Shown: piece after piece, positions 1-19,633 of the stretch
Numbering within the stretch: position 1 is the first letter of the stretch
How the letters are laid out: the number at the start of each line of letters is the position of its first letter
Assembly (NCBI GenBank): GCA_963668175.1
Contig: OY764159.1
Span: 3,488,001-3,552,000, forward strand
DNA: 64,000 bases
Direction: 5' to 3'
Origin: Syntrophales bacterium
GTDB taxonomy: Bacteria; Desulfobacterota; Syntrophia; Syntrophales; PHBD01
Notes under the pieces: generated by a model
What the model was told of the DNA's origin: nothing
What the model saw: only the letters and a program-made list of their open reading frames with translations
The model's database searches: none
Translations under genes and position numbers: made by a program

Positions 1-428
1 CCATCACGGAGTTATCCACGGCCTTGCAGCAGAAGACGGTCGACGGACAGGACAACGGCGCCATCATCACCTACGACCTGGGGCTGCAGCAGTTCCAGAA
101 ATATGCCACCAAGGCGCAGCAGATCTATTCCGGCATGGAAATGTGCATGTCGAAAAAGACCTGGGACAAGCTGACGCCGGCCCAGCAGAAGATCGTTGCC
201 GAGGCCGCCAAGAAGGCCGCCGACGAACAGGTGAAAGTCAATCGCGAGCACGTGGCCCAGAGGTATGCGGCCATGGCGAAAGCCGGCATGCAGGTCATCG
301 ACCCGCCGCCTCAACTGGTCAGCGACCTGAAAGCGGTCGCCGTCAAGATTTGGAACGACCCCAAGTACGAGAAGCTGTACGGTAAAGAGGTTATGGATCG
401 CATTAAGAAGGAAGCTGCGAAGAAATAG
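1..428 (+). CDS. dctP: TRAP transporter substrate-binding protein (DctP family), 5' end outside the window
   Basis: Open from the window start; ELSTALQQKTVDGQDN and 'MSKKTWDKLTPAQQKIVAEAA' are typical of DctP C-termini; followed by dctQ/dctM. Confidence 0.9.
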   Translation, partial: ITELSTALQQKTVDGQDNGAIITYDLGLQQFQKYATKAQQIYSGMEMCMSKKTWDKLTPAQQKIVAEAAKKAADEQVKVNREHVAQRYAAMAKAGMQVIDPPPQLVSDLKAVAVKIWNDPKYEKLYGKEVMDRIKKEAAKK

Positions 429-455
429 ATTTCCTGACTTCTCTCTTTGATCGCT

Positions 456-494
456 GGGGAGGGGCGGGCGGAACCGGTTCCGCTACGCTCCCCC
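456..494. repeat. GC-rich intercistronic inverted repeat (possible mRNA-stabilising hairpin after the SBP gene)
   Basis: ggggaggggcgggcggaac-cg-gttccgctacgctcccc imperfect palindrome between dctP and dctQ; no U-tract. Confidence 0.5.
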
Positions 495-527
495 TCACGC
501 GATAGAATGAAACGAGGTAAACGCTCA

Positions 528-1082
528 ATGAAACTGTTGGAAAAATTCGTCAATGCCCTGACGGGAGTGGAATACTGGGTGACCGTCCCGCTGTTCGTCG
601 TGATGCTCATCGTGATGCTCCTGCAGGTGGTTTGCCGCTATATCCTGGAGATTCCGCTGGCATTCTCCGAGGAGCTGGCCCGTTACCTGTTCGTCGCCTG
701 CACCTTTCTGGGCGCGGCCATTGCCACCGCCGAACGCGGCCATATCGAAATCAACTTCGTCGAACTGGCGATCGTCAGATTCCTTAAAAATCCCTCAGGA
801 CGGATGAGGGCCGCCATCTTCATGAATATCTTTCGCGACCTCGGCACCGTTGTCTGTCTGTCCTTCGTCACTTATGAATCTTATCACCTGGTCACGGACC
901 AGGTGAAAATGGGGCAGATTTCCACCGCCATGGAAATACCTCTCTGGATCGTGACGGCTTCCATGTTTCTTGGGCTTGCGCTCTGCATCCTGCACAGCCT
1001 GGCGTTGATCGTTCTCAACCTGGCCGGACGCGGCCCCATGGGATACGAGTTCGCGGAAGGAGAGCAATCGTCATGTATCTGA
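528..1082 (+). CDS. dctQ: TRAP transporter small permease (DctQ)
   Basis: About 4 TM helices, 'QVVCRY..FSEELARYLFV', 'GHIEI'; ATG at 528 after GAGG. Confidence 0.92.
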   Translation: MKLLEKFVNALTGVEYWVTVPLFVVMLIVMLLQVVCRYILEIPLAFSEELARYLFVACTFLGAAIATAERGHIEINFVELAIVRFLKNPSGRMRAAIFMNIFRDLGTVVCLSFVTYESYHLVTDQVKMGQISTAMEIPLWIVTASMFLGLALCILHSLALIVLNLAGRGPMGYEFAEGEQSSCI

Positions 1083-2377
1083 TCAGCATGTTCATCCTGT
1101 TTTTCGTCGTTCTGGCCGTCCTGCGCATTCCCATTCCCTTCAGCGCCGGGCTGGCCGGCATCCTCTGCATGTTTCTGGGCGACATCCCTCTGACCGTCAT
1201 CCCCGCCCGCATGTTCGGCAGCGTCGATTCCTTCGCCTTTCTGGCCATTCCCGCCTTTATCTATTCGGGCGATGTCATGGCCCTCGGCGGAATCACGGCG
1301 GCGATGATCACCTGGGTGCGGTCGCTCACGGGACGGCTGAAGGGCAGCGTCGCCGCCACGGCGGTGATCGCGTCGGCCCTGTTCGGGACGATATCCGGTT
1401 CCTCCGTCGCCACCGTCAGCGCCATCGGCGGCATGATGCTCCCCGAAATGGTCAAGGCCGGCTACGACAAGCGATACGCCACCGCCCTGGTCGCGGCCTC
1501 CGGCTTTCTGGGCATCCTCATACCGCCGAGCATTCCGGGTGTCGTCTACGCCCTGTCCGTCGGTCTCCCCGTCGGCGACGTCTGGCTCGCCACGGCCGTG
1601 CCGGGCGTCCTCCTGACCATTGTCTATGTGGTCTATAACCGTATATTCTTCGCCCACCACGAGATCCAGGATACGGGAGCATTCACCGCCCGCACCTACT
1701 TTCAGAAAGTCGCCAAGACTTCGGCCCGGGGCGTCGTCGCCCTTCTCATGCCCGTCATCATCTTCGTGGGCGTTTACGGCGGCATCATGACGCCGACGGA
1801 AGCCGGCGCCGTGGCCGTGGCCTACGGTCTCCTGGCGGGATGGGTCATCTATCCCCTTATATTCAAGGACAAGTCGGAAGCGGGTTTGATCGCCATTACG
1901 AAGAAGAGCGCCGTAACGAGCGCCGCCATCATGCTCCTGATCGCCTTTGCGGCCATTCCCAGCGCCATGTTCACCTACGGCGACTGCGCCACGGCCGTAA
2001 CGGACTGGCTTCTCGGCATCACGCAGTCCCCGGTTGTCTTTCTCCTCCTTGTCAACGGCGTGCTTCTGATCGTCGGGATGTTCATGGAAACCAACACGAG
2101 CATCCTGCTTCTTGCCCCCATTCTGGCGCCGGCGGCCACGGCTTTCGGCATCGATCCGATCCACTTTTCGGCCGTCATGCTCCTTAATCTCGAAATCGGC
2201 ATGATCACGCCTCCCTTTGCCTGCAACATCTTCGTAGCCTGCAGGCTCGGCGACCTCAGTATGGACAAGATCCTCGTTCCTATTCTGGGATTCATTGCCT
2301 GCTGTATTCCGGTCCTGTTCGCGACCACATACGTTCCCTCCATATCGCTCTGTATTGTCCGATGGATGGGACACTAG
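1073..2377 (+). CDS. dctM: TRAP transporter large permease (DctM)
   Basis: 434-aa hydrophobic protein with 'ISGSSVAT', 'LIPPSIP', 'TPTEAG', 'ITPP' DctM motifs. Confidence 0.95.
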   Translation: MYLISMFILFFVVLAVLRIPIPFSAGLAGILCMFLGDIPLTVIPARMFGSVDSFAFLAIPAFIYSGDVMALGGITAAMITWVRSLTGRLKGSVAATAVIASALFGTISGSSVATVSAIGGMMLPEMVKAGYDKRYATALVAASGFLGILIPPSIPGVVYALSVGLPVGDVWLATAVPGVLLTIVYVVYNRIFFAHHEIQDTGAFTARTYFQKVAKTSARGVVALLMPVIIFVGVYGGIMTPTEAGAVAVAYGLLAGWVIYPLIFKDKSEAGLIAITKKSAVTSAAIMLLIAFAAIPSAMFTYGDCATAVTDWLLGITQSPVVFLLLVNGVLLIVGMFMETNTSILLLAPILAPAATAFGIDPIHFSAVMLLNLEIGMITPPFACNIFVACRLGDLSMDKILVPILGFIACCIPVLFATTYVPSISLCIVRWMGH

Positions 2378-2409
2378 ATATCTCATATATGAAAGGAAGA
2401 AGATTCAAC

Positions 2410-3780
2410 ATGGCAGTAGCTTCAGCGATAAGAACGAACCCTGCAAGTGCATACGGCAATAAGCTGGTTTCTCCCGAAGAGGCCGTGAAGGCCGTCAAAT
2501 CGGGCGATGTCGTTCACTATGGGGGTTTTAACGGAACGGTATACGATCTGGACGAGGCCCTGGCCAAAAGGATCCATGAACTTCATGACCTGAAAATCAT
2601 CAACAGCATCTGGCCCTATGCCCATCGCCCGGCAATCATGCAGGCCGATCCCAAGGGCGAACACGTCAAATGGCAGTCTACCCAATTCAGCCCGGTGGAA
2701 CGGCAGATGAACAGGGACGGTATCTGCTGGTACATTCCCGTGCAGTACCGGGAGCAGCTGAAATACTGGCGCCAGGATACGAAGATCGATGTGTCCATGT
2801 TCCAGGTCGCCCCCATGGATAAGAACGGGTTTTTCAATGTAGGCCCCCAGGTATCGGACGCCCCGGCCGTCATCGAACGCGCCAGGACCATCATCGTGGA
2901 AGTCAACGAAAAGATGCCGCGCGTCTGCGGGGCGTACGGCGACGCCCTGCACATATCAGACGTCGATTATGTCGTCCAGGGCGCGAACCGCCCCCTGCCC
3001 GAGCGCTTGGCCGGCGCACCCAATGCCGTCCAGCAGAAAATCGCGGAACTCATCGTACCCCTGATACATGACGGCAGCAGTCTGCAATTGGGTATCGGAG
3101 GACTTCCCAACAGCGTCGGCAACCTGATCGCCGCCTCCGATATCAAAGACCTGAGCGTCCATTCGGAAATGTTCGTGGATGCCTTCTTGAATCTCTACAA
3201 GGTTGGAAAAATTACGGGAAACAAGAATCTGGACCGCGGCAAAATGGTCTGGACCTTTTCCATGGGTTCCCAGGAACTCTATGACTTTATCGATCAAAAT
3301 CCCTTGCATCTTGTTTATCCTGTCGAGTATGTAAACGAAATATCGACGATAGCCAAACTCGACAATTTCGTTTCCATCAACAGCTGCCTGGAAGTGGACC
3401 TGTTCGGCCAGGTGAATTCGGAGTCGTCGGGTATGCAGCATATCGGCGGCAACGGCGGGCAACTCGATTTCGTTCTGGGCGCCTATCTGTCCAAGGGCGG
3501 CCAGAGCTTCCTCTGCACGCCTTCCACCCTCAGGACGAAAGATGGGCAGCTGAAAAGCCTGATACGGGGCCGTTTTGACGCCGGTGCGGTCGTCACGGTG
3601 CCGCGGCAGGCCACGCACTATATCGTCACCGAGTACGGCGTGGCCAATATGAAGGGGAAGTCGACGTGGCAGCGTGCTGAGGCCCTCATCAACGTCGCCC
3701 ATCCGGACTTCCGGGACGAGTTGGTCCGTGAAGCGGAAAAAATGGGCGTGTGGAAGATCAGCAGCCGCTGCAGTAAGTGA
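2410..3780 (+). CDS. Family I acyl-CoA:acetate CoA-transferase (butyryl-CoA:acetate / 4-hydroxybutyrate CoA-transferase-like)
   Basis: 'LQLGIGG', 'HSEM' (catalytic Glu), 'GGQLDFVLGAYLSKGG', 'VTEYGVANMKGKSTWQRAEALINVAHPDFR'; start taken at ATG 2410. Confidence 0.88.
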   Translation: MAVASAIRTNPASAYGNKLVSPEEAVKAVKSGDVVHYGGFNGTVYDLDEALAKRIHELHDLKIINSIWPYAHRPAIMQADPKGEHVKWQSTQFSPVERQMNRDGICWYIPVQYREQLKYWRQDTKIDVSMFQVAPMDKNGFFNVGPQVSDAPAVIERARTIIVEVNEKMPRVCGAYGDALHISDVDYVVQGANRPLPERLAGAPNAVQQKIAELIVPLIHDGSSLQLGIGGLPNSVGNLIAASDIKDLSVHSEMFVDAFLNLYKVGKITGNKNLDRGKMVWTFSMGSQELYDFIDQNPLHLVYPVEYVNEISTIAKLDNFVSINSCLEVDLFGQVNSESSGMQHIGGNGGQLDFVLGAYLSKGGQSFLCTPSTLRTKDGQLKSLIRGRFDAGAVVTVPRQATHYIVTEYGVANMKGKSTWQRAEALINVAHPDFRDELVREAEKMGVWKISSRCSK

Positions 3781-3875
3781 TGACAGATGCGGGAACGGCC
3801 GTCCTGACGGTTTCCCCGCCGCGTAGCGGGTCTGCCGGCATGCCGCAGCCTCCAGTTTTGCAGGAGCAGGAGATT

Positions 3876-5102
3876 ATGGAAAAAAAGAAGACGTCGAAGC
3901 AACTACTGGGCGAACTGCTCGCCAAACATTACGCGGATGCCCTGGAAGCAAAGAAGGCGGGAGAACTTGTGGCCTGGTCCACATCGATTGCGCCCCAGGA
4001 GCTTCTGGAGACGATGAATATCAAGGTTGTCTATCCCGAAAACCACGCAGCGGCCATCGGTGCGAGAAAAGACGCCCCGATGTTCCTTGAAGACGCGGAG
4101 AGTAACGGATACTCGCTCGATCTATGTTCGTATGCACGCGTCAATATCGGTTACTCGAACATCCGGGAAAGTCTGGCCGGCAATATCCCCCTGCCCGACC
4201 TTCTCTTCTGCTGCAGCAACATCTGTATGACCGTCATCAAATGGTACGAGAATCTGGCTCATGAACTCCATATCCCCATGATCCTCATCGATACGCCTTT
4301 TAACCACACTTACCAGATTTCGGACGAAAGCGTTCGATATATCCACGGACAGATGGAACACGCCATCAAACAGTTGGAGGCGATCACGGGAAAACGATTC
4401 GACCGGGACCGCTTCCAGGAGGTCATGAAAATCTCTTCCGAGACGGCGAAATGGTGGAAAAAGGCCACGTCGCTGGCCATGGCGAAGCCGTCGCCTTTCA
4501 ACGGCTTCGATATGTTCAACTACATGGCGATTATCGTCTGTATGCGGGGAACCAGGGAAGCGCTGGCGCTCTTCAAGCTGTGGGCGGAGGAGTTGCAGGA
4601 AAAGATAGACCGCGGCGAAGGGCCATGGAAAGATCAGGAAGAGAAATACCGCATCATGTGGGACGGAATCGCCTGTTGGCCCCACCTGTCCGATACGGCC
4701 CGGGTGTTGAAGAAGAACGGGATCAATATGGTTGCTTCGACCTACCCGGACTCATGGACGGTCGTTTACGACAGCGACGATCCGGACACGATGGCAAGGG
4801 CCTACAGCGCAAATTACGTCAACCGGAATCTCGATTACGGCACAGGCAACATCGTTCAACTGGTGAAAGATTTCTCCCTGGACGGCATCATCTACCATTC
4901 CAACCGGAGCTGCAAACTGATGGATTTTCGGCAGTACGAAGTGCAGCGCCGCGTACAGGAGAAGACGGGCATCCCCTCCGTTATTTTCGACGGAGACCAG
5001 ACGGACCCGCGGGCTTTTTCCCTGGCGCAGTACGAAACGAGGATTCAGGCCCTGGTCGAGATGATGGAGCAACGGAAAGAAGAAAGGGCCCGCAGAGTAT
5101 GA
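3876..5102 (+). CDS. 2-hydroxyacyl-CoA dehydratase alpha subunit (HadB/FldB/HgdA family)
   Basis: 'YPENHAAAIGARK', 'DLCSYARVN', 'CSNIC..VIKWYEN', 'RSCK', 'FDGDQTDPRAFS.AQYETRIQAL'; ATG 3876 after AGGAG. Confidence 0.93.
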   Translation: MEKKKTSKQLLGELLAKHYADALEAKKAGELVAWSTSIAPQELLETMNIKVVYPENHAAAIGARKDAPMFLEDAESNGYSLDLCSYARVNIGYSNIRESLAGNIPLPDLLFCCSNICMTVIKWYENLAHELHIPMILIDTPFNHTYQISDESVRYIHGQMEHAIKQLEAITGKRFDRDRFQEVMKISSETAKWWKKATSLAMAKPSPFNGFDMFNYMAIIVCMRGTREALALFKLWAEELQEKIDRGEGPWKDQEEKYRIMWDGIACWPHLSDTARVLKKNGINMVASTYPDSWTVVYDSDDPDTMARAYSANYVNRNLDYGTGNIVQLVKDFSLDGIIYHSNRSCKLMDFRQYEVQRRVQEKTGIPSVIFDGDQTDPRAFSLAQYETRIQALVEMMEQRKEERARRV

Positions 5103-6232
5103 ATCGCATCGAAGAGATCATCGAACTTTTGACGGATACGGCAAGCCATCCGGCGAAGGCGGTGAAAACCGCCATGAAGGAAACGGGAAAAAAGGCCGTC
5201 GGCTGTTTTCCCTATTACACGCCCGACGAGATCATCTACGCCGCGGGCTTTCTGCCCGTCGGCCTCTGGGGCGGCCAGACGGACGTAAAACTGGCCGACA
5301 AGTATTTGCAGAGTTTCTGCTGTTCCATCATGCGGATCAACGTCGAGCAGGGCATGAAAGGGCTGTACGATTTTCTGTCGGCCGTCGTGATTCCCATCTA
5401 CTGCGATACGTTGAAATGCATTTGCGACAACTGGACCGTGGCCGTACCGCAAACCCATTTGATTCCTATTTACTATCCGCAGCATCGCCGGATCGCAACG
5501 GGTATTGCCTATCTCGTGGACGAATACGGGAAGATCCAGAACGATCTCGAAAATATCGCCGCAAAGAAGGTGACGGAAGAGGACCTCAAGGCCGCCATCG
5601 CGCTTTACGACGATTACCGCCGGACCATGCGGCAATTTACGGTCCTCGTCGGCCGTTATCCGCTGACGCTGAATGCCAAGACGCGCCATGCCGTCATCAA
5701 GGCCGGCTATTTCATGGACAAGAAGACCTACACGCCTTTGGTCAGGGAACTCATGGCAGCGTTGGAGAAGACGCCTGCAGAGAAATTCAACGGGATCAAG
5801 GTGGTGGTCACCGGCATCATGGCCGAACCGGACATCCTGCTGGATGCCTTCGTACAGAACCGGATTGCCTTCGTCGCAGACGATCTTGCCCAGGAATCGA
5901 GGCAGTTCAGGACGGCAACGCGCAGCGAAGGGACCGCCATCGAAAGATTGGCCTATCGAATTGCCGATCAGTACGGTTGTTCGCTTCTATATGACGAAAA
6001 AAAGACGCGCGGGAAGATGCTGGTCGATATGGTTCAGGAAACCAAAGCCGACGGCGTGGTCGTGTCCATGATGAAATTCTGCAACCCCGAGGAGTTCGAT
6101 TACCCCATCTTCAAGAAGGAACTTGAAGAGGCGAATATTCCCGTACTGTACCTGGAAATCGAGCAGAAAATGGATGCAGCGGAACAGATCCGGACCCGGA
6201 TTCAGAGTTTCGCCGAAATGCTGAAACGATAA
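5099..6232 (+). CDS. 2-hydroxyacyl-CoA dehydratase beta subunit (HadC/FldC/HgdB family)
   Basis: ATGA overlap with the alpha gene; 'YTPDEIIYAAG', 'SFCCS', 'CDTLKC', 'DDLAQESRQF', 'MMKFCNPEEFDYP', 'EQIRTRIQSFAEML'. Confidence 0.93.
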   Translation: MNRIEEIIELLTDTASHPAKAVKTAMKETGKKAVGCFPYYTPDEIIYAAGFLPVGLWGGQTDVKLADKYLQSFCCSIMRINVEQGMKGLYDFLSAVVIPIYCDTLKCICDNWTVAVPQTHLIPIYYPQHRRIATGIAYLVDEYGKIQNDLENIAAKKVTEEDLKAAIALYDDYRRTMRQFTVLVGRYPLTLNAKTRHAVIKAGYFMDKKTYTPLVRELMAALEKTPAEKFNGIKVVVTGIMAEPDILLDAFVQNRIAFVADDLAQESRQFRTATRSEGTAIERLAYRIADQYGCSLLYDEKKTRGKMLVDMVQETKADGVVVSMMKFCNPEEFDYPIFKKELEEANIPVLYLEIEQKMDAAEQIRTRIQSFAEMLKR

Positions 6233-6311
6233 GCAGCGGGTAAGCGCATCATCGGCCTGTGAAAAGCAATCCGGACTACCGTTGAAAACTATGTTTCTCT
6301 GAGGAGGAAAG

Positions 6312-7100
6312 GTGTTTTTAGGCATCGATATCGGGTCATCAACGTCGAAAGCGGTCGTAATGAATGCCCGGCGGGAAATCGCGGGCAGGGCCGTCATCAA
6401 TACGGGGACGGGAACGCAGGGTCCGGAAAAAGCCGTGGCGGCTGCACTCAAAGAATCGGGGCTCGTCCGCGAGGATATCAAGGCCTCCGTGGTTACGGGC
6501 TACGGAAGAATCACCTATCAGGATGCGGATAAGCAGATTACGGAGATCAGCTGCCATGCCAGGGGCATCGCCTTTCTGATGCCGGCGGCCAGGACCGTTA
6601 TCGATATCGGCGGTCAGGACGCCAAGGTGATCAAGCTGGACGAAGGCGGCAACGTGACGAATTTTGTCATGAATGAAAAATGCGCGGCGGGAACGGGGCG
6701 ATTCCTGGAGGTGATGGCGCGGATACTGGATTGCGGGATAGAGGATCTGGCTGCTCTCGCGGAGCGGGCCACAGCGGAGATCGTTATCAGCAACACCTGT
6801 ACCGTCTTCGCCGAATCGGAAGTCATATCCCAGCTGGCCGCCGGCGCCAAAAGGGAAGATGTGGCCAAGGGCGCCCACAGAGCGGTAGCCAAGAGGGTGG
6901 CCGGTTTGGGAAGCCGTATGGGCATGCGACCGGACGTCGTCATGACCGGAGGCGTGGCCCTGAACCGGGGAGTCGTCGCTGCTCTCGAACGGGAAATCGG
7001 CGAAAGGATCATCGTCGCCGAAAATCCGCAGTTGATCGGGGCCATCGGGGCCGCCCTATATGCAACGGTATATTCAAAGGAAATGGAAGAAAAAGCATGA
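6312..7100 (+). CDS. ATP-dependent [4Fe-4S] dehydratase activator (HadI/HgdC/FldI family)
   Basis: 'GIDIGSSTSK', 'TGYGR', 'EISCHARG', 'DIGGQDAK', 'MNEKCAAGTGRFLE', 'CTVFAESEVIS'; GTG start after GAGGAGG. Confidence 0.95.
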   Translation: MFLGIDIGSSTSKAVVMNARREIAGRAVINTGTGTQGPEKAVAAALKESGLVREDIKASVVTGYGRITYQDADKQITEISCHARGIAFLMPAARTVIDIGGQDAKVIKLDEGGNVTNFVMNEKCAAGTGRFLEVMARILDCGIEDLAALAERATAEIVISNTCTVFAESEVISQLAAGAKREDVAKGAHRAVAKRVAGLGSRMGMRPDVVMTGGVALNRGVVAALEREIGERIIVAENPQLIGAIGAALYATVYSKEMEEKA

Positions 7101-8137
7101 AAACGAGGATTACAGAGCTTTTCGGCGTAAAATATCCCATCCTTCTGTCGGGTATGAGTTGGATCAGCACACCCGCCATGGTCGCCGCCGTGTCGAACGC
7201 CGGCGGTCTCGGCATCCTCGCCACGGGGTATTTCAGCCCGGAAGAGACGAGGAAGGCCGTCCGGGAAACCAGAAGCCTGACGGACAAGCCTTTCGGGGCC
7301 AATGCCTCCCTGATTCTTCCCCATGCCCTGGAAAGTGCAAGGGTCCTTCTCGAGGAAAAAGTTCCCGTGATCAATTTTTCCCTCGGCAAGGGCGACTGGA
7401 TCGTCAGAGGCGCCCATGAATACGGCGGCAAGGTCGTCGCCACGGTGGTCAATCATACCCATGCCAAAAGAGCCCAGGATTACGGCTGCGACGGCGTCAT
7501 CGTAACGGGGCACGAGGCGGCGGCCCACGGCGGGGATGTGGCGACGTTCGTGCTCGTTCCCGGCATCACCGGCAAGATTTCCATCCCCGTCATCGTTGCG
7601 GGCGGCATTGCCGACGGCAGAGGCCTCGCGGCCGCCCTGGCCCTGGGCGCGGAAGGCGTCGCCATGGGCACCCGTTTCATGACGACTAGGGAAAGTCCCC
7701 TGCACGATCTATCCAAGAAACTGGCCCTCGAAAAGAGCATTTACGATACGGTCTATTCGGACCGCATCGACGGCATGGGAACGCGGGTCCTCGACACGCA
7801 GTCGGCCCGGCAGGCCATTGCCCGGGGGTTCAGCGTCTTTTCCGCATTCACCAGCGCTGTGAAAATAACGAGGGAGATGAAACTGTCGTTTTCAAAGGAG
7901 TTGTTCGGGGTTCTCTCCCAGGGCATCAAGAAATCCATTCAGCTCGCCCACCTGGCGGCAGGCGGCGAAGCCTACGAGCGTTCCATGTTCGGGGACTTCG
8001 ACAAGGGGATTCTTCTCGCGGGACAGGCCGTCGGCTTGATCGAAGACCTGCCGTCCGTCGACGACCTGATCAAAACGATGGTTGCGGAAGCGAAGGACAT
8101 TCAAACGAGGATGGGCAGACAACTGGCAGACGTGTAA
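7097..8137 (+). CDS. FMN-dependent nitronate monooxygenase / FabK / IpdC-like oxidoreductase (probable enoyl-thioester reductase)
   Basis: ATGA-coupled; 'MKTRITELFGVKYPI', 'AAVSNAGGLG', 'TDKPFGAN', 'EAAAHGG', 'AGGIADGRG', 'MGTRF', 'AGQAVGLI'. Confidence 0.88.
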   Translation: MKTRITELFGVKYPILLSGMSWISTPAMVAAVSNAGGLGILATGYFSPEETRKAVRETRSLTDKPFGANASLILPHALESARVLLEEKVPVINFSLGKGDWIVRGAHEYGGKVVATVVNHTHAKRAQDYGCDGVIVTGHEAAAHGGDVATFVLVPGITGKISIPVIVAGGIADGRGLAAALALGAEGVAMGTRFMTTRESPLHDLSKKLALEKSIYDTVYSDRIDGMGTRVLDTQSARQAIARGFSVFSAFTSAVKITREMKLSFSKELFGVLSQGIKKSIQLAHLAAGGEAYERSMFGDFDKGILLAGQAVGLIEDLPSVDDLIKTMVAEAKDIQTRMGRQLADV

Positions 8138-8252
8138 TCACATCAGCGCGGGCGGATATCGACATAAAGGATGGGTCGCTCCAGTTACCAGGCCGGCAAT
8201 ATACATAGCGGCGGCTCATTCTATTTCATCAGCAAAGGAGTAGAACGAGACT

Positions 8253-9116
8253 ATGAAAATCAATACAATAGGAGTAATCGGGGCGGGGAACATGGGGCGT
8301 CAGATCGCCCTGCAGTGCGCCCTGTCGGGTTTCGAGGTTTACTGCACGGACACGATCGCCGTTGTTCTGCAAAGCGCCGAGGCCTTTTCGCGCAAGTGGC
8401 TCGCCGACCGCGTCGCCAAGGGCAAGATGGCCGAGGATGAGGCCAAAACGGTAAGCGCCCGCCTGCACTACACGGCCGAGCTGGCCGAGGCCGCCAAGGG
8501 CGCAGACCTCATCATCGAAGCCATCATCGAGATATTGGAAACGAAGCGGGCGCTCTTCAAAGAGCTGGACAAGCTCTGTCCGGCCCACACGATCCTTGCG
8601 ACCAACAGCTCGTACATCGTGAGTTCCAGGATCGCCGACGCCACGAAACGGCCCGACAAGGTCCTGAACATGCACTTCTTCAACCCGGCCCTCGTCATGA
8701 AGCTCGTCGAGGTCGTCCAGGGTCCCCACGTCTCCGACGAAACCGTCGAGACGGTCATCGAAGTCAGCAAGGCGTTGGGCAAGGTGCCCACCAGGGTGAA
8801 CAAGGAGATCTACGGCTTCATCTGCAACCGGATGTTCAGCGCCATCACGAAGGAGGCCTGCTACCTCCTGGATCTGGGCATCGCCTCCATCGAGGACATC
8901 GACAACGCCGCGAAGAACGGCCTGGGGCATCCGATGGGTCCCCTGCAGCTCCTCGACATGACGGGGATCGACCTCGAATACTACGTCTCCATGGAACGTT
9001 ACCAGGAGACGCGGAACCTCGCCGACAAGCCGAGTCCCGGCCTCGTGGAGCGTTACGCCCGGGGCGACTACGGCAGGAAGACGGGCAAGGGATTCTACGA
9101 TTACACGAAGAAGTGA
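8253..9116 (+). CDS. hbd: 3-hydroxyacyl(butyryl)-CoA dehydrogenase
   Basis: GAGNMG Rossmann motif, 'IEAIIE', 'ATNSS', 'MHFFNP', 'GFICNR', 'PMGP', 'GRKTGKGFYDY'. Confidence 0.9.
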   Translation: MKINTIGVIGAGNMGRQIALQCALSGFEVYCTDTIAVVLQSAEAFSRKWLADRVAKGKMAEDEAKTVSARLHYTAELAEAAKGADLIIEAIIEILETKRALFKELDKLCPAHTILATNSSYIVSSRIADATKRPDKVLNMHFFNPALVMKLVEVVQGPHVSDETVETVIEVSKALGKVPTRVNKEIYGFICNRMFSAITKEACYLLDLGIASIEDIDNAAKNGLGHPMGPLQLLDMTGIDLEYYVSMERYQETRNLADKPSPGLVERYARGDYGRKTGKGFYDYTKK

Positions 9117-9147
9117 GGCGGCGACGTTTTCCGGAAAGGATAGAGAC

Positions 9148-9912
9148 ATGAATTACGAAAACATTCAGTTCGCGGTGAGCGGGGCGACGGCCGTTTTAAT
9201 GCTGAACCGTCCGAAGGCGATGAACGCCCTGAACCGCGCGCTTGTGGACGAACTGGACCATGCCGTGGACCGGATCGCGAACGACCCGTCCATCGCGGCG
9301 GTTGTCCTCTCGGGCGAGAAGAACTTCGCGGCGGGGGCGGACATCACGTCGATGGTGGAGATGGACCCGGAAGCGGCGAAGGCGTTTGCCTTCACGCCGA
9401 CGTATCAGAAGATCGAAGAGCTGGCAAAGCCGACGATTGCCGCGATATCGGGCTTTGCCCTGGGAGGCGGCCTGGAGCTGGCCCTGGCGTGCGACATCCG
9501 GATCGCCGGTCCCGATGCGAAGCTTGCCTTCCCCGAGATCAATATAGGGATATTCCCCGGCGCCGGGGGGACGCAGCGTCTGCCCCGGCTGGTGGGACCC
9601 GCCCGGGCAAAGGAGCTGATCTTCCTGGGGACGACGCTCGACGCCCAGAAGGCGCTCGAATACGGTCTCGTGAACAGCATCGCGGACGATCCGCTGGACG
9701 CGGCCATGAAGATGGCGTTGAAGCTGGCGGGGAAGCCCGCCGTGGCCCTGGCGCGCGCGAAGGAATGCATCAACATCGCCTCGGAGTCGGGCCTTAAGGC
9801 GGGACTGAAAGCCGAGGCGGAGAAATGGGGCAGCCTCTTTACGACGGCGGACCAGAAGGAAGGCATGCGGGCCTTCCTGGAGAAGAGGAAACCGGTCTAC
9901 AAGGGTCAATGA
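9148..9912 (+). CDS. crt: Enoyl-CoA hydratase (crotonase)
   Basis: 'LNRPKAMNALN', 'FAAGADI', '[11 protein letters not shown]', '[22 protein letters not shown]' with both catalytic Glu. Confidence 0.9.
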   Translation: MNYENIQFAVSGATAVLMLNRPKAMNALNRALVDELDHAVDRIANDPSIAAVVLSGEKNFAAGADITSMVEMDPEAAKAFAFTPTYQKIEELAKPTIAAISGFALGGGLELALACDIRIAGPDAKLAFPEINIGIFPGAGGTQRLPRLVGPARAKELIFLGTTLDAQKALEYGLVNSIADDPLDAAMKMALKLAGKPAVALARAKECINIASESGLKAGLKAEAEKWGSLFTTADQKEGMRAFLEKRKPVYKGQ

Positions 9913-9928
9913 TTGGAAAGGAGCATCT

Positions 9929-11110
9929 ATGAGAGAAGTGGTCATTATCGGCGGTGCGAGAACCGCCATTGGAAACTATATGGGATCGCTGGCGGGGTTC
10001 AACTCCGTCGCGCTGGGCATCTTTGCGCTGAAAGGCGCCCTTGAGAAGACGGGGGTGGCCATGGGCGACCTGGAGTGCCTCGTTGCTGGTCACGTGAACC
10101 AGGCGGGTGCGCCGGGGAACTCGGCCAGACACATCGCCATGCGGGCGGGCCTGCCGATTACGTCATACGCCTACACGGTGCACCAGCAGTGCGCATCGTC
10201 CATGCGTGCGGCGGAGTGCCTGTCCCAGGACATCATGCTGGGGAAGTACGACGTGGGCGTCGTGGTGGGCATCGAGTCCATGAGCACGGCGCCGTATCTC
10301 CTGATGGGCGCCCGGAAGGGATACCGCCTCGGGGATGCGGAAAAGGTGCAGGACAGCCTCATGATCGGGGGCCTGGTCGACGATCTTCTGGGTTATCACA
10401 TGGGGATCACGGCGGAGAACATCGCGGCCGATTACGGGATCACGCGTGAAGAGCAGGACGAGTTTGCCCTCATGAGCAACATGCGGGCGTGCAAGGCCAT
10501 CCAGAAGGGCTGGTTCAAGGACGAGATCGTCCCGGTGGAGATCAAGACGAGGAAAGGGACGACGGTATTCGATACGGACGAGCATCCGCAGGCGAACACG
10601 TCGATGGAGGCGTTGGCGAAGCTGAAGCCCGCCTTCAAGAAGGACGGGACGGTGACGGCGGGGAACGCCTCCGGACTGAACGACGCGGGATCGGCCCTGA
10701 TCGTGATGTCGGCGGAAGCGGCGAAGGCGAAGGGCTTCAAGCCTGTCGCCAGGGTCGTCGCCTCCTCCCCCGGTTCGGTGGAGCCCCGGATCATGGGCAT
10801 GGGTGTGGTTCCCGCGGTGCGTAACGCCCTGAAGTTCGCGGGGCTTTCGCAGGACCAGATCGATTACTGGGAGCTGAACGAGGCGTTTGCGGCGCAGGTT
10901 TTGGGAGTGAACCGCGAGCTGAAGATCGGCCTGGACCGTGTGAATGCCGTGGGGTCCGGTATCGGCCTGGGGCATCCGGTGGGTGCGACGGGCGCGCGTC
11001 TCATCATCACCATGATCAACGAGATGAAGCGCCGGGGCGTGAGATACGGCTGCGCCTCCCTGTGCGCAAGCGGCGGACCCGCCCATGCGTTTATCGTCGA
11101 ATCCATCTAA
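9929..11110 (+). CDS. Acetyl-CoA C-acetyltransferase (thiolase)
   Basis: 'QQCASS' catalytic Cys, 'MGITAENIA', 'GTVTAGNASGLND', 'NEAFA', 'GHPVGATG', 'CASGG'. Confidence 0.95.
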   Translation: MREVVIIGGARTAIGNYMGSLAGFNSVALGIFALKGALEKTGVAMGDLECLVAGHVNQAGAPGNSARHIAMRAGLPITSYAYTVHQQCASSMRAAECLSQDIMLGKYDVGVVVGIESMSTAPYLLMGARKGYRLGDAEKVQDSLMIGGLVDDLLGYHMGITAENIAADYGITREEQDEFALMSNMRACKAIQKGWFKDEIVPVEIKTRKGTTVFDTDEHPQANTSMEALAKLKPAFKKDGTVTAGNASGLNDAGSALIVMSAEAAKAKGFKPVARVVASSPGSVEPRIMGMGVVPAVRNALKFAGLSQDQIDYWELNEAFAAQVLGVNRELKIGLDRVNAVGSGIGLGHPVGATGARLIITMINEMKRRGVRYGCASLCASGGPAHAFIVESI

Positions 11111-11130
11111 CCGAAACCAGGAGGCACGAT

Positions 11131-12582
11131 ATGGCACTCAAGACGCCTGAAGAGTACGAAGCAAGTCTGCGTAAAATGAACATGAAGATATACCTGATGG
11201 GCGAACGGGTGAAGGACCCGGTGGATCATCCCATCATCCGGCCTTCGATGAACTCCGTGAAGAAGACCTACGAGCTGGCCCTGGACCCGTCCTGCGAGGA
11301 CCTGATGACGGCGACGTCGTCGCTGACGGGGAAGAAGATCAACCGGTTCTGCCATCTGCACCAGAACACGGACGACCTGATCAGGAAGGTGAAGATGCAG
11401 CGTCTGCTGGGCCAGCAGACGGCGGCGTGCTTCCAGCGGTGCGTCGGCATGGACGCGATCAACGCCGTGGACTCGACAACCTTCGAAATGGACCAGAAGC
11501 TGGGTACGGAATACCACAAGCGCTTCCGGAACTTTCTCCTCAGGATGCAGGAGGAGGACTGGACGGTGGACGGCGCCATGACGGACGTGAAGGGCGACCG
11601 CGGTCTGGCTCCGCACCAGCAGGCGGACCCGGACCTCTTTGTCCGCGTCGTCGAGAAGAACGACAGGGGGATCGTGGTGCGCGGGGCGAAGGCGCACCAG
11701 ACGGGTGCGGTGAACTCGCACTGGGTTCTCGTGATGCCGACGATCGCCATGGGGAAGGACGATGCGGACTATGCGGTGGCGTTTGTCGCCCCGGCGGACG
11801 CGGAGGGCATCTTCTACATCTACGGGCGGCAGTCCTGCGATACGCGGAAGCTGGAAGGCGGGACGATCGACGTGGGCAACGCGACCTACGGGGGTCACGA
11901 GGCGCTGATCGTCTTCGAGGACGTGTTCGTTCCTTGGGAGAACGTGCTCATGTGCGGGGAGTGGCAGTACAGCGGGCTGCTGGTGGAGCGATTCGCCGGT
12001 TATCACCGTCAGAGCTACGGGGGCTGCAAGGTCGGCGTGGGCGATGTTTTGATCGGGGCGGCGGCTGTTGCTGCGGACTACAACGGAGCGGCGAAGGCGT
12101 CGCATGTGAAGGACAAGCTGATCGAGATGATGCACCTGAACGAGACGCTGTATTCTTGCGGGATCGCCTGTTCGTCGCAGGGGAGCAGGACGGCGTCGGG
12201 GACGTACCTGATCGACCTGTTGCTGGCGAACGTGTGCAAACAGAACGTGACGCGCTACCCGTACGAGATTGCGCGCCTGGCGCAGGACATTGCGGGTGGC
12301 CTCATGGTGACGATGGCATCCGAGCGCGACCTGAAGCACCCGGAGATCGGGAAGGTGCTGGAGAAGTACATGAAGGGCAACGCAAGCGTGCCGGTGGAGA
12401 ACCGCTGCCGGATGATGCGCCTGGTGGAGAACCTGACGCTGGGCACGGCGGCGGTGGGCTATCTGACGGAATCGATGCACGGGGCGGGTTCGCCTCAGGC
12501 GCAGCGGATCATGATCGCCCGCCAGGGCAACCTGGAACACAAGAAGAAGCTCGCCGAGAAGATCGCCGGGGTCAAGGAATAG
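11131..12582 (+). CDS. abfD: 4-hydroxybutyryl-CoA dehydratase / vinylacetyl-CoA delta-isomerase
   Basis: 'ACFQRCVGMDA' (CX3C), 'AMTDVKGDR', 'GAKAHQTG', 'YHRQSYGGCKVG' (His/Cys ligands), 'ESMHGAGSPQAQRIMI'; ATG after AGGAGG. Confidence 0.96.
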   Translation: MALKTPEEYEASLRKMNMKIYLMGERVKDPVDHPIIRPSMNSVKKTYELALDPSCEDLMTATSSLTGKKINRFCHLHQNTDDLIRKVKMQRLLGQQTAACFQRCVGMDAINAVDSTTFEMDQKLGTEYHKRFRNFLLRMQEEDWTVDGAMTDVKGDRGLAPHQQADPDLFVRVVEKNDRGIVVRGAKAHQTGAVNSHWVLVMPTIAMGKDDADYAVAFVAPADAEGIFYIYGRQSCDTRKLEGGTIDVGNATYGGHEALIVFEDVFVPWENVLMCGEWQYSGLLVERFAGYHRQSYGGCKVGVGDVLIGAAAVAADYNGAAKASHVKDKLIEMMHLNETLYSCGIACSSQGSRTASGTYLIDLLLANVCKQNVTRYPYEIARLAQDIAGGLMVTMASERDLKHPEIGKVLEKYMKGNASVPVENRCRMMRLVENLTLGTAAVGYLTESMHGAGSPQAQRIMIARQGNLEHKKKLAEKIAGVKE

Positions 12583-12706: not shown

Positions 12707-12740
12707 AAGGGGCCGGCCCCAAGCCGGCCCCTTCTCTTCT
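12707..12740 (+). terminator. Probable intrinsic terminator of the TRAP-abfD operon
   Basis: Perfect 11-bp stem AAGGGGCCGGC-cccaa-GCCGGCCCCTT followed by a pyrimidine run (ctcttct). Confidence 0.6.
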
Positions 12741-13046: not shown

Positions 13047-13835
13047 CTATTTCGCCAGGAGGCCTCCGTCCACGCCGAGGATCTGACCTGTGACATAGGC
13101 TGAAGCGTCGGAGGAGAGGAAGACGGCGACACCTTTCATGTCGTCCACTCCGGCCGATCTCTTAAGCGGTATCGCCCTGACCATCATTTTATGGACGTTC
13201 TCCATGCCCGGTTTCTCGACAAAGGCCATCATGTCGGTCCTGAAGAACCCGGGTGCAACGGCATTGACCCGTATTTTGTGAGGCGCCAGCTTGACCGCCA
13301 GATTCATCGTCAGAAGGTTGATGGCAGCCTTGGCTGAATTATAGGGCACGGAGGGATGCCATTCTTCCTCCGATCCCCGGAACCCCATAATTGAAGAAAC
13401 ATTGATTATGACACCCCCGCCCTGTTCTTTCATTGTCCTGGCGACCCGCTGGCTCAGCATCCAGACCCCGCGGACGTTGGTATTGAAAATTTTGTCCCAC
13501 TGTTCCAGGGGAAACTCCAAAGTCGGCGCCCCCCATGTCACACCGGCGTTATTGACCAGGATGTCGATGCGCCCCATCTTCGCGAGGGTATCGTCGACCA
13601 GGGCGGCAATCTTTTCTTCCTTCGACACGTCGCAGGCAATGGGAATCGCCCGGATGCCATAGGTCGCCGATAGCTCGGCCGCCGCTTCTTCCAGGTTATT
13701 CAGATTCCTCGATGCGAGGACCACGTCGGCCCCCGCCTCGGCCAATCCCGTGGCCATGTGTTTCCCTATGCCGCGGCCTCCCCCGGTCACCAGGGCCACC
13801 TTGCCTTTCAGATTGAACATCTCTTGCAGTTGCAT
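13047..13835 (-). CDS. Short-chain dehydrogenase/reductase (gluconate 5-dehydrogenase-like clade)
   Basis: 'TGGGRGIG', 'NNAGVTWGAP', 'YNSAK', 'VNAVAPGFF', 'VDGG'. Confidence 0.9.
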   Translation of the reverse strand: MQLQEMFNLKGKVALVTGGGRGIGKHMATGLAEAGADVVLASRNLNNLEEAAAELSATYGIRAIPIACDVSKEEKIAALVDDTLAKMGRIDILVNNAGVTWGAPTLEFPLEQWDKIFNTNVRGVWMLSQRVARTMKEQGGGVIINVSSIMGFRGSEEEWHPSVPYNSAKAAINLLTMNLAVKLAPHKIRVNAVAPGFFRTDMMAFVEKPGMENVHKMMVRAIPLKRSAGVDDMKGVAVFLSSDASAYVTGQILGVDGGLLAK

Positions 13836-13939
13836 TGCTATTCTCCTTTTTATATGATTCTCATCATGTCGTTTTATGCGGAAGCGTCATCTCAATGATG
13901 TCCTATATGCTCTTTAAGCAAAAGTCCTTCGACGGTTTT

Positions 13940-14236
13940 CTAATGGGCCGAAAATAGCTCTTCCATGATGGCGATTTCCGGTTTTCCCGCCAGGAATTCC
14001 GCGCCTTTTGCGTTAAACGCTTTGAAATGCGGAGTCCTTGAATGCGCATCCAACGCCATCCTGTCATGGTATCGTTCCATGAAAATAAACGCACCCGGCT
14101 CCTTGCGATTCTGGCTCACTGTGAAAAGCATCGTTCCCTCTTCCCGGGCCACGGCGGAAACAAACTCCCTTATTGCCGCGAAGGCCTCCACACGTTTCTC
14201 TTCTTTCACAATCAATTTGGCAATAACGGTCACCAT
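13940..14236 (-). CDS. Antibiotic biosynthesis monooxygenase (ABM)-domain protein
   Basis: 98 aa; 'REEGT', 'FIFMERY', 'ALDAHSRTPHFK' ABM/YgiN signature. Confidence 0.85.
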   Translation of the reverse strand: MVTVIAKLIVKEEKRVEAFAAIREFVSAVAREEGTMLFTVSQNRKEPGAFIFMERYHDRMALDAHSRTPHFKAFNAKGAEFLAGKPEIAIMEELFSAH

Positions 14237-14428
14237 ATTTCTGTTCCTTCTCTCGGTTTCCCTTTCATAAGATCATTCCGGCTGATACTGCACATCCCTA
14301 TCCGCCGGCGTGAATGGGGCGACGGTCGTACCATGGTTGCAGCGAAGGAGTAGCGGACATGAGACATGTTTTGGAGGTCGCATCAATGGAGCACATGCCT
14401 CTCTGTCACACGGATACGCCGCCGCCCA

Positions 14429-16738: not shown

Positions 16739-16763
16739 AGTTCCTCCCCGTTATCCTTAACCG

Positions 16764-17915: not shown

Positions 17916-17940
17916 GATTGATCCTCCCTCAAATGTCCCG

Positions 17941-19149: not shown

Positions 19150-19184
19150 AAAACCTCCGTGAAACATGAATTTGCCGAGGATAT

Positions 19185-19200
19185 TGCATTGGACGTGCCA
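19185..19200 (-). promoter_or_regulatory. sigma54 (-24/-12) promoter for the thiolase operon
   Basis: Minus strand TGGCAC-GTCCA-ATGCA matches TGGCAC-N5-TTGCW with one mismatch, 36 nt upstream of the ATG. Confidence 0.75.
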
Positions 19201-19273
19201 GGCGGGGCGCGGCATAAAGTGTCTTCATTACGGGGACATAAACGGCCCGTCAAAAACGGCGCAGGACGATTTC

Positions 19274-19307
19274 AACGATATATTGTGACTTTTCTTTATA
19301 TATCGTT
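19274..19307. promoter_or_regulatory. Candidate enhancer (UAS) inverted repeat
   Basis: AACGATATAT-N14-ATATATCGTT perfect 10-bp arms, 74 nt upstream of the sigma54 element. Confidence 0.55.
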
Positions 19308-19633
19308 TCACTCAAGAGAGATAACGGTCCAACCGGGTCATGAGAAGCCCCGGCTGGACCGTTATGGAGGAAGAAAAAGAGAAAGAATGATACAGCAGGC
19401 TAAATCCGGTGTATTGAAACGCTGCGGCATCCTGCCTTCAGAGAAATCGGATCACGGATTCGACATGCCTTACCAAGCCTTGGAAAACTGGAACATTTGT
19501 ACAGTCATCCTACGGCGGAGCGGACGCGCCTTCAGCGCTCCGCATGCATGCCGTCATTGTAAAGCGGCGACGATCGTCCTTCGATACGATCCCGGCCTTC
19601 TCTGACGCAGGAATGGATGCCTGCTTCATGATG

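Follow-up and report, generated by a model that had tools for sequence, protein, structure and literature searches.

The first 12,582 nucleotides of a 64,000-nucleotide stretch of the complete 4.57-Mb genome of a Syntrophales bacterium (G000:C1:3488001-3552000; hereafter the window) carry an operon that encodes both a two-subunit radical 2-hydroxyacyl-coenzyme A (CoA) dehydratase with its activase (hadBC, hadI) and a 4-hydroxybutyryl-CoA dehydratase (abfD). This raises the question of whether the two dehydratases act in series on one substrate or share only a product. An earlier note on this DNA had proposed the former, as a redox-neutral fermentation of 2,4-dihydroxybutyrate, and had named as its alternative that 2- and 4-hydroxybutyrate are funnelled separately into crotonyl-CoA and disproportionated. 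Gene families, gene order, a repeat and distribution in relatives were observed, and the alternative fits them better than the 2,4-dihydroxybutyrate route. The reading favoured here, to which we give about an even chance, is close to it: the operon would be a mobile feeder module fused to a generic crotonyl-CoA hub cassette, likely for fermentation of a small 2-hydroxy acid.

The last four genes of the operon belong to a repeat. A blastn search of the region against its own genome identified positions 8235-12569 (+ strand) as a 4.3-kb unit of hbd, crt, thl and abfD (hereafter the cassette), bounded 18 nt before the hbd start and 13 nt before the abfD stop, that is ~98% identical to three other places in the genome. 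The full cassette recurs at G000:C1:3556318-3560652 (97.97% over 4335 nt), hbd-crt-thl at 1757729-1760605 (97.99% over 2879 nt), and abfD alone, at ~98%, at 1765673-1767128 and 1831562-1833025. The copies have different neighbours: (i) a GntR regulator, a Liv-type ABC importer and a 40%-identical AbfD-like paralog before, with a family III CoA-transferase after; (ii) a PAS-LuxR regulator, hbd-crt-thl, an acyl-CoA dehydrogenase (ACAD), a 52%-identical CoA-transferase, an MFS transporter, a Usp protein and abfD; and (iii) a Liv-type ABC system, an ACAD, crt and an iron-containing alcohol dehydrogenase (Fe-ADH), then a lone abfD. In public sequencing runs that probably include the source sample, contigs enter the repeat from both unique flanks (6800-8279, ending 44 nt inside, and resuming from 12554). 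Contig depth within the repeat is 1.7-3.6x that of the flanks, and these data fit a multi-copy element located where the assembly puts it. Because no listed contig spans 8279-12554, its position in the operon is supported by the assembly together with the contigs entering both flanks. The two full copies are direct repeats ~56 kb apart that bracket most of the window and could promote deletion, duplication or gene conversion of the intervening region.

The AbfD family is expanded in the source genome to ten genes: four encode near-identical proteins (~99-100%), two encode proteins of 81-83% identity and the other four reach 38-40%; a classical set of Fe-ADH, abfD, NifU and CoA-transferase genes lies elsewhere (L086). 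Five related genomes have 5-12 members each. One of the low-identity paralogs (33-40%) directly precedes a cassette copy (G000:3554503-3556092). Orthologs of 81-85% identity were compared in six related genomes; in four they occur as thl-abfD or thl-ACAD-abfD (thl 73-83% identical), and had genes adjoin them in none of the six. By this gene order, the lineage has its own thl-abfD part of the cassette, and AbfD does not belong to the had module by inheritance.

The had module has a different distribution. One genome per species was scanned for HadB, and the loci of the best 80 of 112 relatives (53-80% identity) were searched by tblastn with the window proteins and with proteins taken from the loci themselves; the resulting counts are lower bounds, as many loci end at contig ends. 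HadB proteins 77-80% identical to that of the window occur in metagenome-assembled genomes (MAGs) labelled Desulfobacterales, Smithellaceae, Negativicutes and Thermodesulfobacteriota, and the ten closest loci (at least 74%) come from MAGs with these labels or labelled Bacillota, and from Sinanaerobacter. The best HadB in eight genomes of the same family as the source is only 50-53% identical, so vertical inheritance within the family does not account for the feeder module. Among the 80 loci, hadI was found in 75, a homolog of the CoA-transferase gene (cot) in 56 and genes of a tripartite ATP-independent periplasmic (TRAP) importer in 33. Any of hbd, crt and thl was present in 57 and all three in 41, and in six of the ten closest loci the three directly follow hadBCI. 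abfD was found in 12/80, in at least four arrangements.

A scan with full-length DctP, the TRAP binding protein, gave a similar association: in all six of its seven related loci (61-79% identity) with enough sequence, hadBC stands beside the TRAP genes, as does hadI where the sequence reaches. abfD is in the operon in one of the four DctP loci with informative downstream sequence (L034/L183, L184, L186 and L003/L185). That one, L003 from a Desulfobacterales MAG, has the layout of the window (regulator-dctPQM-cot-hadBCI-hbd-crt-thl-abfD) without the gene for the flavin mononucleotide (FMN) enzyme discussed below. Among the best 80 of 112 HadB loci, L003 alone combines TRAP genes with the three dehydratase genes and abfD in a single co-oriented operon resembling that of the window; in L023, L057 and L060, TRAP genes and abfD also lie near hadBCI but are arranged differently. 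In comparison with the window, thl and crt of L003 are 48-50% and abfD 66% identical, but cot, hadB and dctM are 77-78% identical. Because of this disparity, and because AbfD orthologs elsewhere stand without had genes, the source genome and L003 must have joined the had module and the cassette independently of each other, and the combination is one that has been selected at least twice.

The enzymes of the module resemble characterised proteins without being equivalent to them. The two paralogous HGD-D (PF06050) subunits lie side by side with full-length matches, and a separate activase of the TIGR00241 type and a CoA-transferase are encoded with them, as expected of a 2-hydroxyacyl-CoA dehydratase. 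The HadB-like subunit aligns over its full length with chain A of 3o3m (447 bits over residues 1-402), with many cysteines conserved, and among NCBIfam models and solved structures the dehydratase is nearest to HadBC. Both subunits score below the cut-offs of the (R)-2-hydroxyisocaproyl-CoA dehydratase equivalogs (Table 1), which makes the dehydratase a relative of HadBC and not the same enzyme. The CoA-transferase, likewise below the But equivalog cut-off, is a family member only, and its closest solved relatives are 4-hydroxybutyrate CoA-transferases (270-280 bits; 270 bits to 3gk7). AbfD matches the crystallised Clostridium aminobutyricum enzyme (1u8v) at 728 bits (residues 3-482 against 2-490), and its CxxxC (CfqrC) and HxxxxxxC (HrqsyggC) motifs, which we take to supply the Cys/Cys/His/Cys ligands of the [4Fe-4S] cluster, align with those of 1u8v without a difference. 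In total, the source genome encodes 12 CoA-transferases of the operon's type, 17 paralogs of the regulator, three genes of the FMN enzyme's family and two HGD-D pairs. The second HGD-D pair, with its activase (G000:C1:975526-978793; L088 5526-8793), is 28-37% identical to the window subunits and is preceded by a PAS-LuxR regulator and an AMP-forming ligase in place of a CoA-transferase.

The FMN enzyme belongs to the NMO family, scoring far above the family cut-off and below that of the FabK equivalog (Table 1). Its best solved match is FabK (5gvh, 226 bits), and its context is catabolic, not fatty-acid synthesis. IpdC of Mycobacterium is an acyl-CoA reductase of this family. The NMO/FMN TIM-barrel family also includes FabK and the FabK-family protein ArkA, the latter predicted, not assayed, to reduce acrylyl-CoA (PMC4029986). 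FabK differs from the window enzyme, which stands in catabolic acyl-CoA clusters. The best 80 of 460 relatives (56-71% identical) are mostly from Syntrophales and Smithella MAGs, and most are closer to a second paralog in the source genome (59% identical to that of the window), which follows an acyl-CoA ligase and an ACAD. A third paralog belongs to a cluster under a PAS-LuxR regulator that also contains hbd and encodes two family III CoA-transferases, together with an ACAD, a ligase and a thiolase. The nearest relative (L090, Smithella, 71%) is part of abfD-thl-cot-hbd-NMO-crt on a 9-kb contig lacking the upstream part, and the second nearest (L089, 69%) lies among ACAD, crt, hbd and thl genes and an acyl-CoA mutase set. 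Because all three genes of the source genome and most of the 80 relatives adjoin ACAD, hbd, crt, thl, ligase or CoA-transferase genes, the family is tied to acyl-CoA metabolism, not fatty-acid synthesis, and we infer that the window enzyme is a short-chain enoyl-CoA reductase. A conserved acyl-CoA ligase-ACAD-NMO set occurs in Syntrophales and Smithella (G000:C1:200493-204459, minus strand, L087 6493-10459; and ~20 of the 80 loci).

Within had loci, the NMO gene is specific to this genome's version of the operon: a homolog (E <= 1e-3) was found in 0/80 HadB loci and in 0/7 DctP-related loci, L003 included. A reductase partner recurs in had loci as non-orthologous enzymes, namely bcd and/or etf in 31/80 and a short-chain dehydrogenase/reductase (SDR) in 17/80, with NMO in the source genome only.

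According to the favoured explanation, the first unit would be a horizontally mobile feeder comprising the PAS-LuxR regulator, the TRAP importer, the But/AbfT-family CoA-transferase, the HadBC-type radical dehydratase and its ATP-driven activase, and in the source genome alone the extra, translationally coupled NMO/FabK-family enzyme. A short 2-hydroxy acid would be imported, converted to its CoA thioester at the cost of an acyl-CoA, and relieved of its 2-hydroxyl to give a 2-enoyl-CoA, which would be crotonyl-CoA if the acid were 2-hydroxybutyrate, the simplest fit. The second unit, one copy of the hbd-crt-thl-abfD hub, would hydrate, oxidise and cleave the enoyl-CoA to acetyl-CoA, and AbfD would feed 4-hydroxybutyryl-CoA into the same crotonyl-CoA pool. 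The FMN enzyme would most likely reduce part of the enoyl-CoA to a saturated acyl-CoA, which would recharge the CoA-transferase; this step may serve a disproportionation as its reductive branch or provide a syntroph with an electron sink, and the enzyme would take the place that the Acd/Etf reductase has in the classical Had, Fld and Lcd pathways. What the substrate is, which way the flux runs and what the FMN enzyme does are inferred here. Known chemistry explains most of the operon simply: lactyl-CoA dehydratase turns (R)-2-hydroxybutyryl-CoA into crotonyl-CoA (PMC8473912), and the Had pathway of Clostridioides difficile converts threonine-derived 2-hydroxybutyrate to butyrate (bioRxiv 10.1101/2023.09.18.558167).

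The reductive leucine (Had) pathway of C. difficile (LdhA, HadA, HadI, HadBC and AcdB-EtfBA) resembles the window in uniting, within a single operon, a two-subunit HGD-D dehydratase and its separate activase with a CoA-transferase and an enoyl-CoA reductase. However, the window CoA-transferase is of the But/AbfT family, in contrast to HadA, which we take to be a family III enzyme. The window reductase is an FMN enzyme of the NMO family rather than Acd/Etf, no 2-hydroxyacid dehydrogenase is present in the operon, and a TRAP importer and an oxidative hbd-crt-thl-abfD cassette are attached. The 4-aminobutyrate/4-hydroxybutyrate pathway of C. aminobutyricum (AbfH, AbfT, AbfD) is related through AbfD and through the likeness of the CoA-transferase to AbfT, but the operon is without 4-hydroxybutyrate dehydrogenase and aminotransferase genes, and its abfD is one of four near-identical copies. 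New here are the TRAP-linked mobile feeder module, the FMN reductase replacing Acd/Etf, and the fusion to a repeated cassette.

Related loci vary in what accompanies the dehydratase. In a Smithellaceae MAG (L034), reg-dctPQM-cot-hadBCI is directly followed by an SDR, and the Oscillibacter form is hadBCI-cot-dctPQM-SDR-D-2-hydroxyacid dehydrogenase. Three loci (L004, L043 and L067), the closest Firmicute relatives of the window dehydratase at 75-76% identity, have a sigma-54 regulator, hadBCI-hbd-crt-thl-cot, a class III aminotransferase, an Fe-ADH and a D-2-hydroxyacid dehydrogenase; the genes after hadBCI suggest an amino-acid-derived substrate there. The common Firmicute form comprises a sigma-54 regulator, bcd-etfBA-thl-hbd-crt-hadBCI, a FabZ-like gene and cot; in seven loci abfD comes next. 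Across the 80 loci, D-2-hydroxyacid dehydrogenase was found in 20 and Fe-ADH in 13. The accessory SDRs are KduD-like or gluconate-5-dehydrogenase-like and the 2-ketoacid reductases GhrA-, GhrB-, PGDH- or VanH-like, all below cut-offs; the Fe-ADH falls above the cut-off in the glycerol dehydrogenase subfamily. In L060, a beta-keto acid cleavage enzyme (BKACE), an hbd-like dehydrogenase, TRAP genes, a ketopantoate-reductase-like gene and a sigma-54 regulator accompany hadBCI and abfD, and the BKACE could supply a 2-hydroxyacyl-CoA from a 3,4-dihydroxy acid.

In Firmicutes the HadBC-like dehydratase has a conserved companion, a small FabA/FabZ-like hotdog gene, which usually has hadI on one side and the CoA-transferase gene on the other. 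It was found in 31/80 loci, including L005, L006, L016, L017, L019, L021-L026, L028-L030, L036, L041, L044-L047, L049, L056, L057, L069, L075 and L079. We know of no 2-hydroxyacyl-CoA pathway that requires such an enzyme; an isomerase or an (R)-hydratase are possibilities.

The imported acid was approached through DctP, whose model has a predicted local distance difference test (pLDDT) score of 92. The nearest solved structures are 4pdh, 4pdd and 4p9k/4PAK (34-36% identity), followed by 7BBR, 4NQ8 (29%) and 4PBQ. Matches to 4PDH, 4P9K/4PAK and 4NQ8 in sequence and fold have E-values of 1e-48 to 5e-51 and TM-scores of 0.85-0.92. The ligand of 4PDD is, we believe, erythronate. For the others, mostly with co-purified ligands, erythronate is given for 4PDH (Bpro_1871), pantoate or erythronate for 4P9K (Veis_3954) and pantoate for 4NQ8 (BB3421; PMC11668362, supplementary table). 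In this subfamily two arginines and an asparagine bind the carboxylate and nearby hydroxyl, and a conserved acidic residue usually hydrogen-bonds a ligand hydroxyl (PMC11668362). DctP keeps R173, R194 and N234 with the spacing of that triad, which it shares with 4PDH, 4P9K/4PAK and 4NQ8. Its GGE motif is also present in 4PDD, 4PDH, 4NQ8 and 4PBQ and is GAE in 4P9K; from the spacing, E96 would be the acidic hydroxyl-binding residue. Because identity is only 34-36%, the ligands of the solved proteins do not transfer to DctP. Taken with the accessory enzymes, these relatives indicate a 2-hydroxy acid, perhaps one with further hydroxyls.

Several of these observations weigh against fermentation of a plain 2-hydroxy acid by a feeder and a generic hub. 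The nearest solved relatives of DctP bind erythronate or pantoate, not plain 2-hydroxybutyrate, and the glutamate of the GGE motif, said to hydrogen-bond a ligand hydroxyl in its subfamily, is conserved. The sugar-acid- or polyol-like accessory enzymes of related loci hint at more hydroxylated substrates. In Syntrophales the NMO gene frequently adjoins an ACAD gene, and its product may therefore do more than simple enoyl-CoA reduction. Finally, abfD recurs beside had genes, and the source genome and L003 reached the same layout independently; this recurrence could mean that both dehydratases act in one route, beyond sharing a product.

Such a route, which is rather unlikely, would place the two radical dehydratases in series on one TRAP-imported hydroxylated C4 acid, either 2,4-dihydroxybutyrate or, by a detour through hbd and crt, erythronate or threonate. 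The HadBC-type enzyme would take the 2-hydroxyl, the FMN reductase would saturate 4-hydroxycrotonyl-CoA and AbfD would take the 4-hydroxyl; in Firmicute versions, a FabZ-like isomerase and an alcohol dehydrogenase might replace the FMN reductase.

Another hydroxylated C3-C4 acid (erythronate or threonate, 2,3-dihydroxybutyrate or glycerate) is an improbable substrate. With a 2,3-dihydroxyacyl-CoA, radical removal of the 2-hydroxyl would give an enol and hence a 3-oxoacyl-CoA, chemistry proposed here, although to our knowledge no 2-hydroxyacyl-CoA dehydratase acts on a 2,3-dihydroxyacyl-CoA. With 2,3-dihydroxybutyrate, thiolase alone would complete the route, which is then complete in L003 without any reductase. 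In the erythronate or threonate version, hbd and crt would run backwards to 4-hydroxycrotonyl-CoA, the FMN enzyme and AbfD would yield crotonyl-CoA, and the cassette would yield acetyl-CoA with a net uptake of 2[H]. This version employs every operon gene, but the reductase it needs is missing from L003. Erythronate as the ligand of two of the nearest solved binding proteins, and the resemblance of accessory enzymes to sugar-acid or polyol enzymes, argue for substrates of this kind; the SDR and 2-ketoacid-reductase matches that underlie the latter point are below curated cut-offs.

The dedicated redox-neutral route of the earlier note would run from 2,4-dihydroxybutyrate through its CoA ester to 4-hydroxycrotonyl-CoA (HadBC), 4-hydroxybutyryl-CoA (FMN reductase), crotonyl-CoA (AbfD) and two acetyl-CoA. 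It is chemically coherent, with a candidate gene for every step, and its redox arithmetic is right (C4H8O4 corresponds to two acetate, and one NAD(P)H is consumed while one NADH is formed). The closest solved binding proteins (4PDH, 4P9K and 4NQ8; PMC11668362) hold acids with a 2,4-dihydroxy C4 skeleton, and the Arg/Arg/Asn triad and the GGE glutamate are conserved in DctP, but the identity is too low for the ligand to be transferred. The proximity of had and abfD genes in 12 of the 80 loci also speaks for the route, and in C. aminobutyricum hadBCI adjoins an AbfT-like/AbfD-like pair. This pair (L028) was considered as the crystallised AbfD and AbfT and rejected; the genes encode second paralogs (720 and 394 bits). 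AbfD was also found in 10/10 other genomes tested with the closest had genes. This co-occurrence is weak evidence, because AbfD is common in the order anyway (23/40 order-level relatives at E <= 1e-120) and the relatives are not independent.

The comparison with relatives undoes the claim that each gene fills one step of this route. Its abfD belongs to a repeated cassette placed behind other feeders, the thl-abfD part of which stands without had genes in relatives of the lineage, and abfD accompanies only one of four informative TRAP-linked loci. Furthermore, the reductase is conserved in neither the HadB nor the DctP loci; because L003 is without it, the route would stop there at 4-hydroxycrotonyl-CoA. 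The synteny of dehydratase trio, FabK-like gene, abfD and TRAP genes, for which the earlier note proposed a search, is not conserved in the HadB and DctP loci. The route is rated low, since neither of the features that specifically spoke for it, an abfD of its own and a reductase conserved in relatives, holds up. No published description of such a pathway was found. In the literature searched, mostly outside subscription journals and in part through partial texts, there was no combined 2-hydroxyacyl-CoA/4-hydroxybutyryl-CoA dehydratase pathway and no anaerobic catabolism of 2,4-dihydroxybutyrate, as the earlier note had supposed. The literature searched on 4-hydroxycrotonyl-CoA (Pseudomonas putida) and on 2-hydroxyacyl-CoA dehydratase with TRAP or Syntrophus likewise described no such pathway, and in the part consulted Vital et al. 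2014 (PMC3994512) deals with the glutarate route and the 4-aminobutyrate route as separate ones.

Still less probable is a substrate of the hydroxyglutarate type, by which (R)-2-hydroxyglutarate or another 2-hydroxy dicarboxylate would pass through glutaconyl-CoA to crotonyl-CoA, with Gcd encoded elsewhere, and then into the cassette. The known pathway (HgdH, GctAB, HgdC, HgdAB and GcdABCD) uses the same dehydratase and activase families, and its crotonyl-CoA is handled by hbd and thl. GctAB-like genes for a two-subunit CoA-transferase lie inside the TRAP-had module of two DctP loci (L181 and L182) and beside hadBCI in L020. The source genome has orthologs elsewhere (69-76% identical to those of L181/L182), as well as two OAD_beta/GcdB-type genes, and L002 has a CitMHS_2 transporter with GlcD-like and CCG-domain proteins upstream. 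However, the window operon has neither gctAB nor gcd, its dehydratase is closest to HadBC with its monocarboxylic substrate, the nearest solved binding proteins hold monocarboxylic hydroxy acids, and the FMN enzyme would be left without a role. The GctAB-like genes of the source genome (G000:C1:1769820-1771552; L083 15820-17552) lie in a separate reg-gctAB-crt-hbd cluster, and those of the source genome, L020, L181 and L182 have no NCBIfam match at E <= 1e-20.

An acrylate-type route, in which lactate would pass via lactyl-CoA and acryloyl-CoA to propionyl-CoA by the FMN enzyme beside a merely co-located cassette, recalls the CoA-transferase, dehydratase and reductase triad of the acrylate pathway of Clostridium (Anaerotignum) propionicum and the activity predicted for ArkA, but is the least credible of these explanations, since hbd, crt and thl follow hadBCI so often that a product of four or more carbons is indicated, and the solved TRAP proteins that we take to bind lactate are not among the 60 best solved matches of DctP. 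Unlike the acrylate pathway, which leads to propionate, the window operon is linked with genes of C4 beta-oxidation.

As for the operon itself, genes were assigned from an open reading frame (ORF) listing and profile searches with Pfam and NCBIfam, and the assignments of the earlier note all hold in these searches and in structure-sequence comparisons (Table 1). All genes are co-oriented on the plus strand, and the partial ATGA coupling claimed is present as two overlaps (hadB/hadC at 5099-5102 and hadI/nmo at 7097-7100), next to a 10-nt dctQ/dctM overlap. DctP, DctQ and DctM genes occur together, as in TRAP importers. The operon starts upstream of the window, where full dctP and a PAS-PAS-LuxR regulator gene lie on the same strand; beyond the regulator, an IclR regulator and a Liv-type ABC system lie on the opposite strand. 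The single closing terminator claimed corresponds to one strong hairpin after abfD, the strongest terminator-like site found, although the overall number of such sites matches that in shuffled sequence (12 found, 11.7 expected).

Table 1. Features of the operon, with positions in the window unless genome coordinates are given; cut-offs are those of the profile named.
Feature	Position	Strand	Profile match or remark
PAS-PAS-LuxR regulator	G000:C1:3485641-3487089 (upstream, outside window)	+	PAS_3, PAS, GerE domains
Full dctP	G000:C1:3487355-3488428 (begins upstream of window start)	+	full protein 242 bits
DctP, C-terminal 141 residues	3-428	+	PF03480, 83.6 bits
DctQ, TRAP small membrane subunit	528-1082	+	PF04290, 84 bits; start codon uncertain, ORF opens at 447
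DctM, TRAP large membrane subunit	1073-2377	+	PF06808, 320 bits; TIGR00786, 326 bits (cut-off 268)
CoA-transferase, But / 4-hydroxybutyrate CoA-transferase type (acetyl-CoA hydrolase/transferase family)	2410-3780	+	PF13336 + PF02550; TIGR03948, 560 bits (cut-off 675)
2-hydroxyacyl-CoA dehydratase alpha, HadB-like	3876-5102	+	PF06050, 272 bits; NF052455, 545 bits (cut-off 750)
2-hydroxyacyl-CoA dehydratase beta, HadC-like	5099-6232	+	PF06050, 276 bits; NF052456, 485 bits (cut-off 700)
ATP-dependent activase, HadI/HgdC type	6312-7100	+	PF01869, 234 bits; TIGR00241, 280 bits (cut-off 125)
FMN oxidoreductase, NMO/FabK family	7097-8137	+	PF03060, 207 bits (cut-off 28); FabK model TIGR03151, 246 bits (cut-off 453)
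hbd, 3-hydroxybutyryl-CoA dehydrogenase	8253-9116	+	PF02737 + PF00725; every NCBIfam hbd model below cut-off
crt, crotonase / short-chain enoyl-CoA hydratase	9148-9912	+	PF00378, 216 bits
Thiolase (thl), acetyl-CoA C-acyltransferase	9929-11110	+	PF00108 + PF02803; TIGR01930, 420 bits (cut-off 241)
AbfD, 4-hydroxybutyryl-CoA dehydratase / vinylacetyl-CoA delta-isomerase	11131-12582	+	PF11794 (HpaB_N), 339 bits; PF03241 (HpaB), 252 bits
Terminator-like G+C-rich hairpin, 125 nt 3' of abfD stop	12707-12733	+	11-pair stem, 9 G-C; consensus scan only

Convergent to the operon, positions 13050-21736 (minus strand) hold an acyl-CoA cluster with an SDR, an ABM-domain protein and two large carboxylesterase-family proteins (769 and 700 aa), between which lie a 383-aa hbd-like gene and a thiolase. 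The SDR (13050-13835, minus strand) was considered as an ortholog of the SDR after hadI in L034 and rejected, the two being only 39% identical.

The HadBC-like clade (53-80% identical) is large and, as far as the searches show, uncharacterised, and is probably a more valuable lead than the operon itself. In Oscillospiraceae, Anaerovoracaceae and relatives its genes form part of butyrate operons (bcd-etf-thl-hbd-crt-hadBCI-FabZ-like-cot, in some cases also abfD), and in guts and digesters the clade could be a source of butyrate that has escaped notice. If the two dehydratases did act in series, they would belong to a hitherto undescribed CoA-dependent route by which anaerobes convert deoxy-sugar or tetronic acids to acetate or butyrate, put together independently in several phyla. 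No anaerobic pathway for 2,4-dihydroxybutyrate or tetronic acids, and no case of two radical dehydratases in series, would precede it. If instead the favoured reading, a feeder fused to a hub, is true, an anaerobe would build its catabolic operons by bolting a mobile import, activation and dehydration module onto copies of a standard crotonyl-CoA cassette, and the usual Acd/Etf would have given way to an FMN enzyme whose family, though common in Syntrophales, is uncharacterised there.

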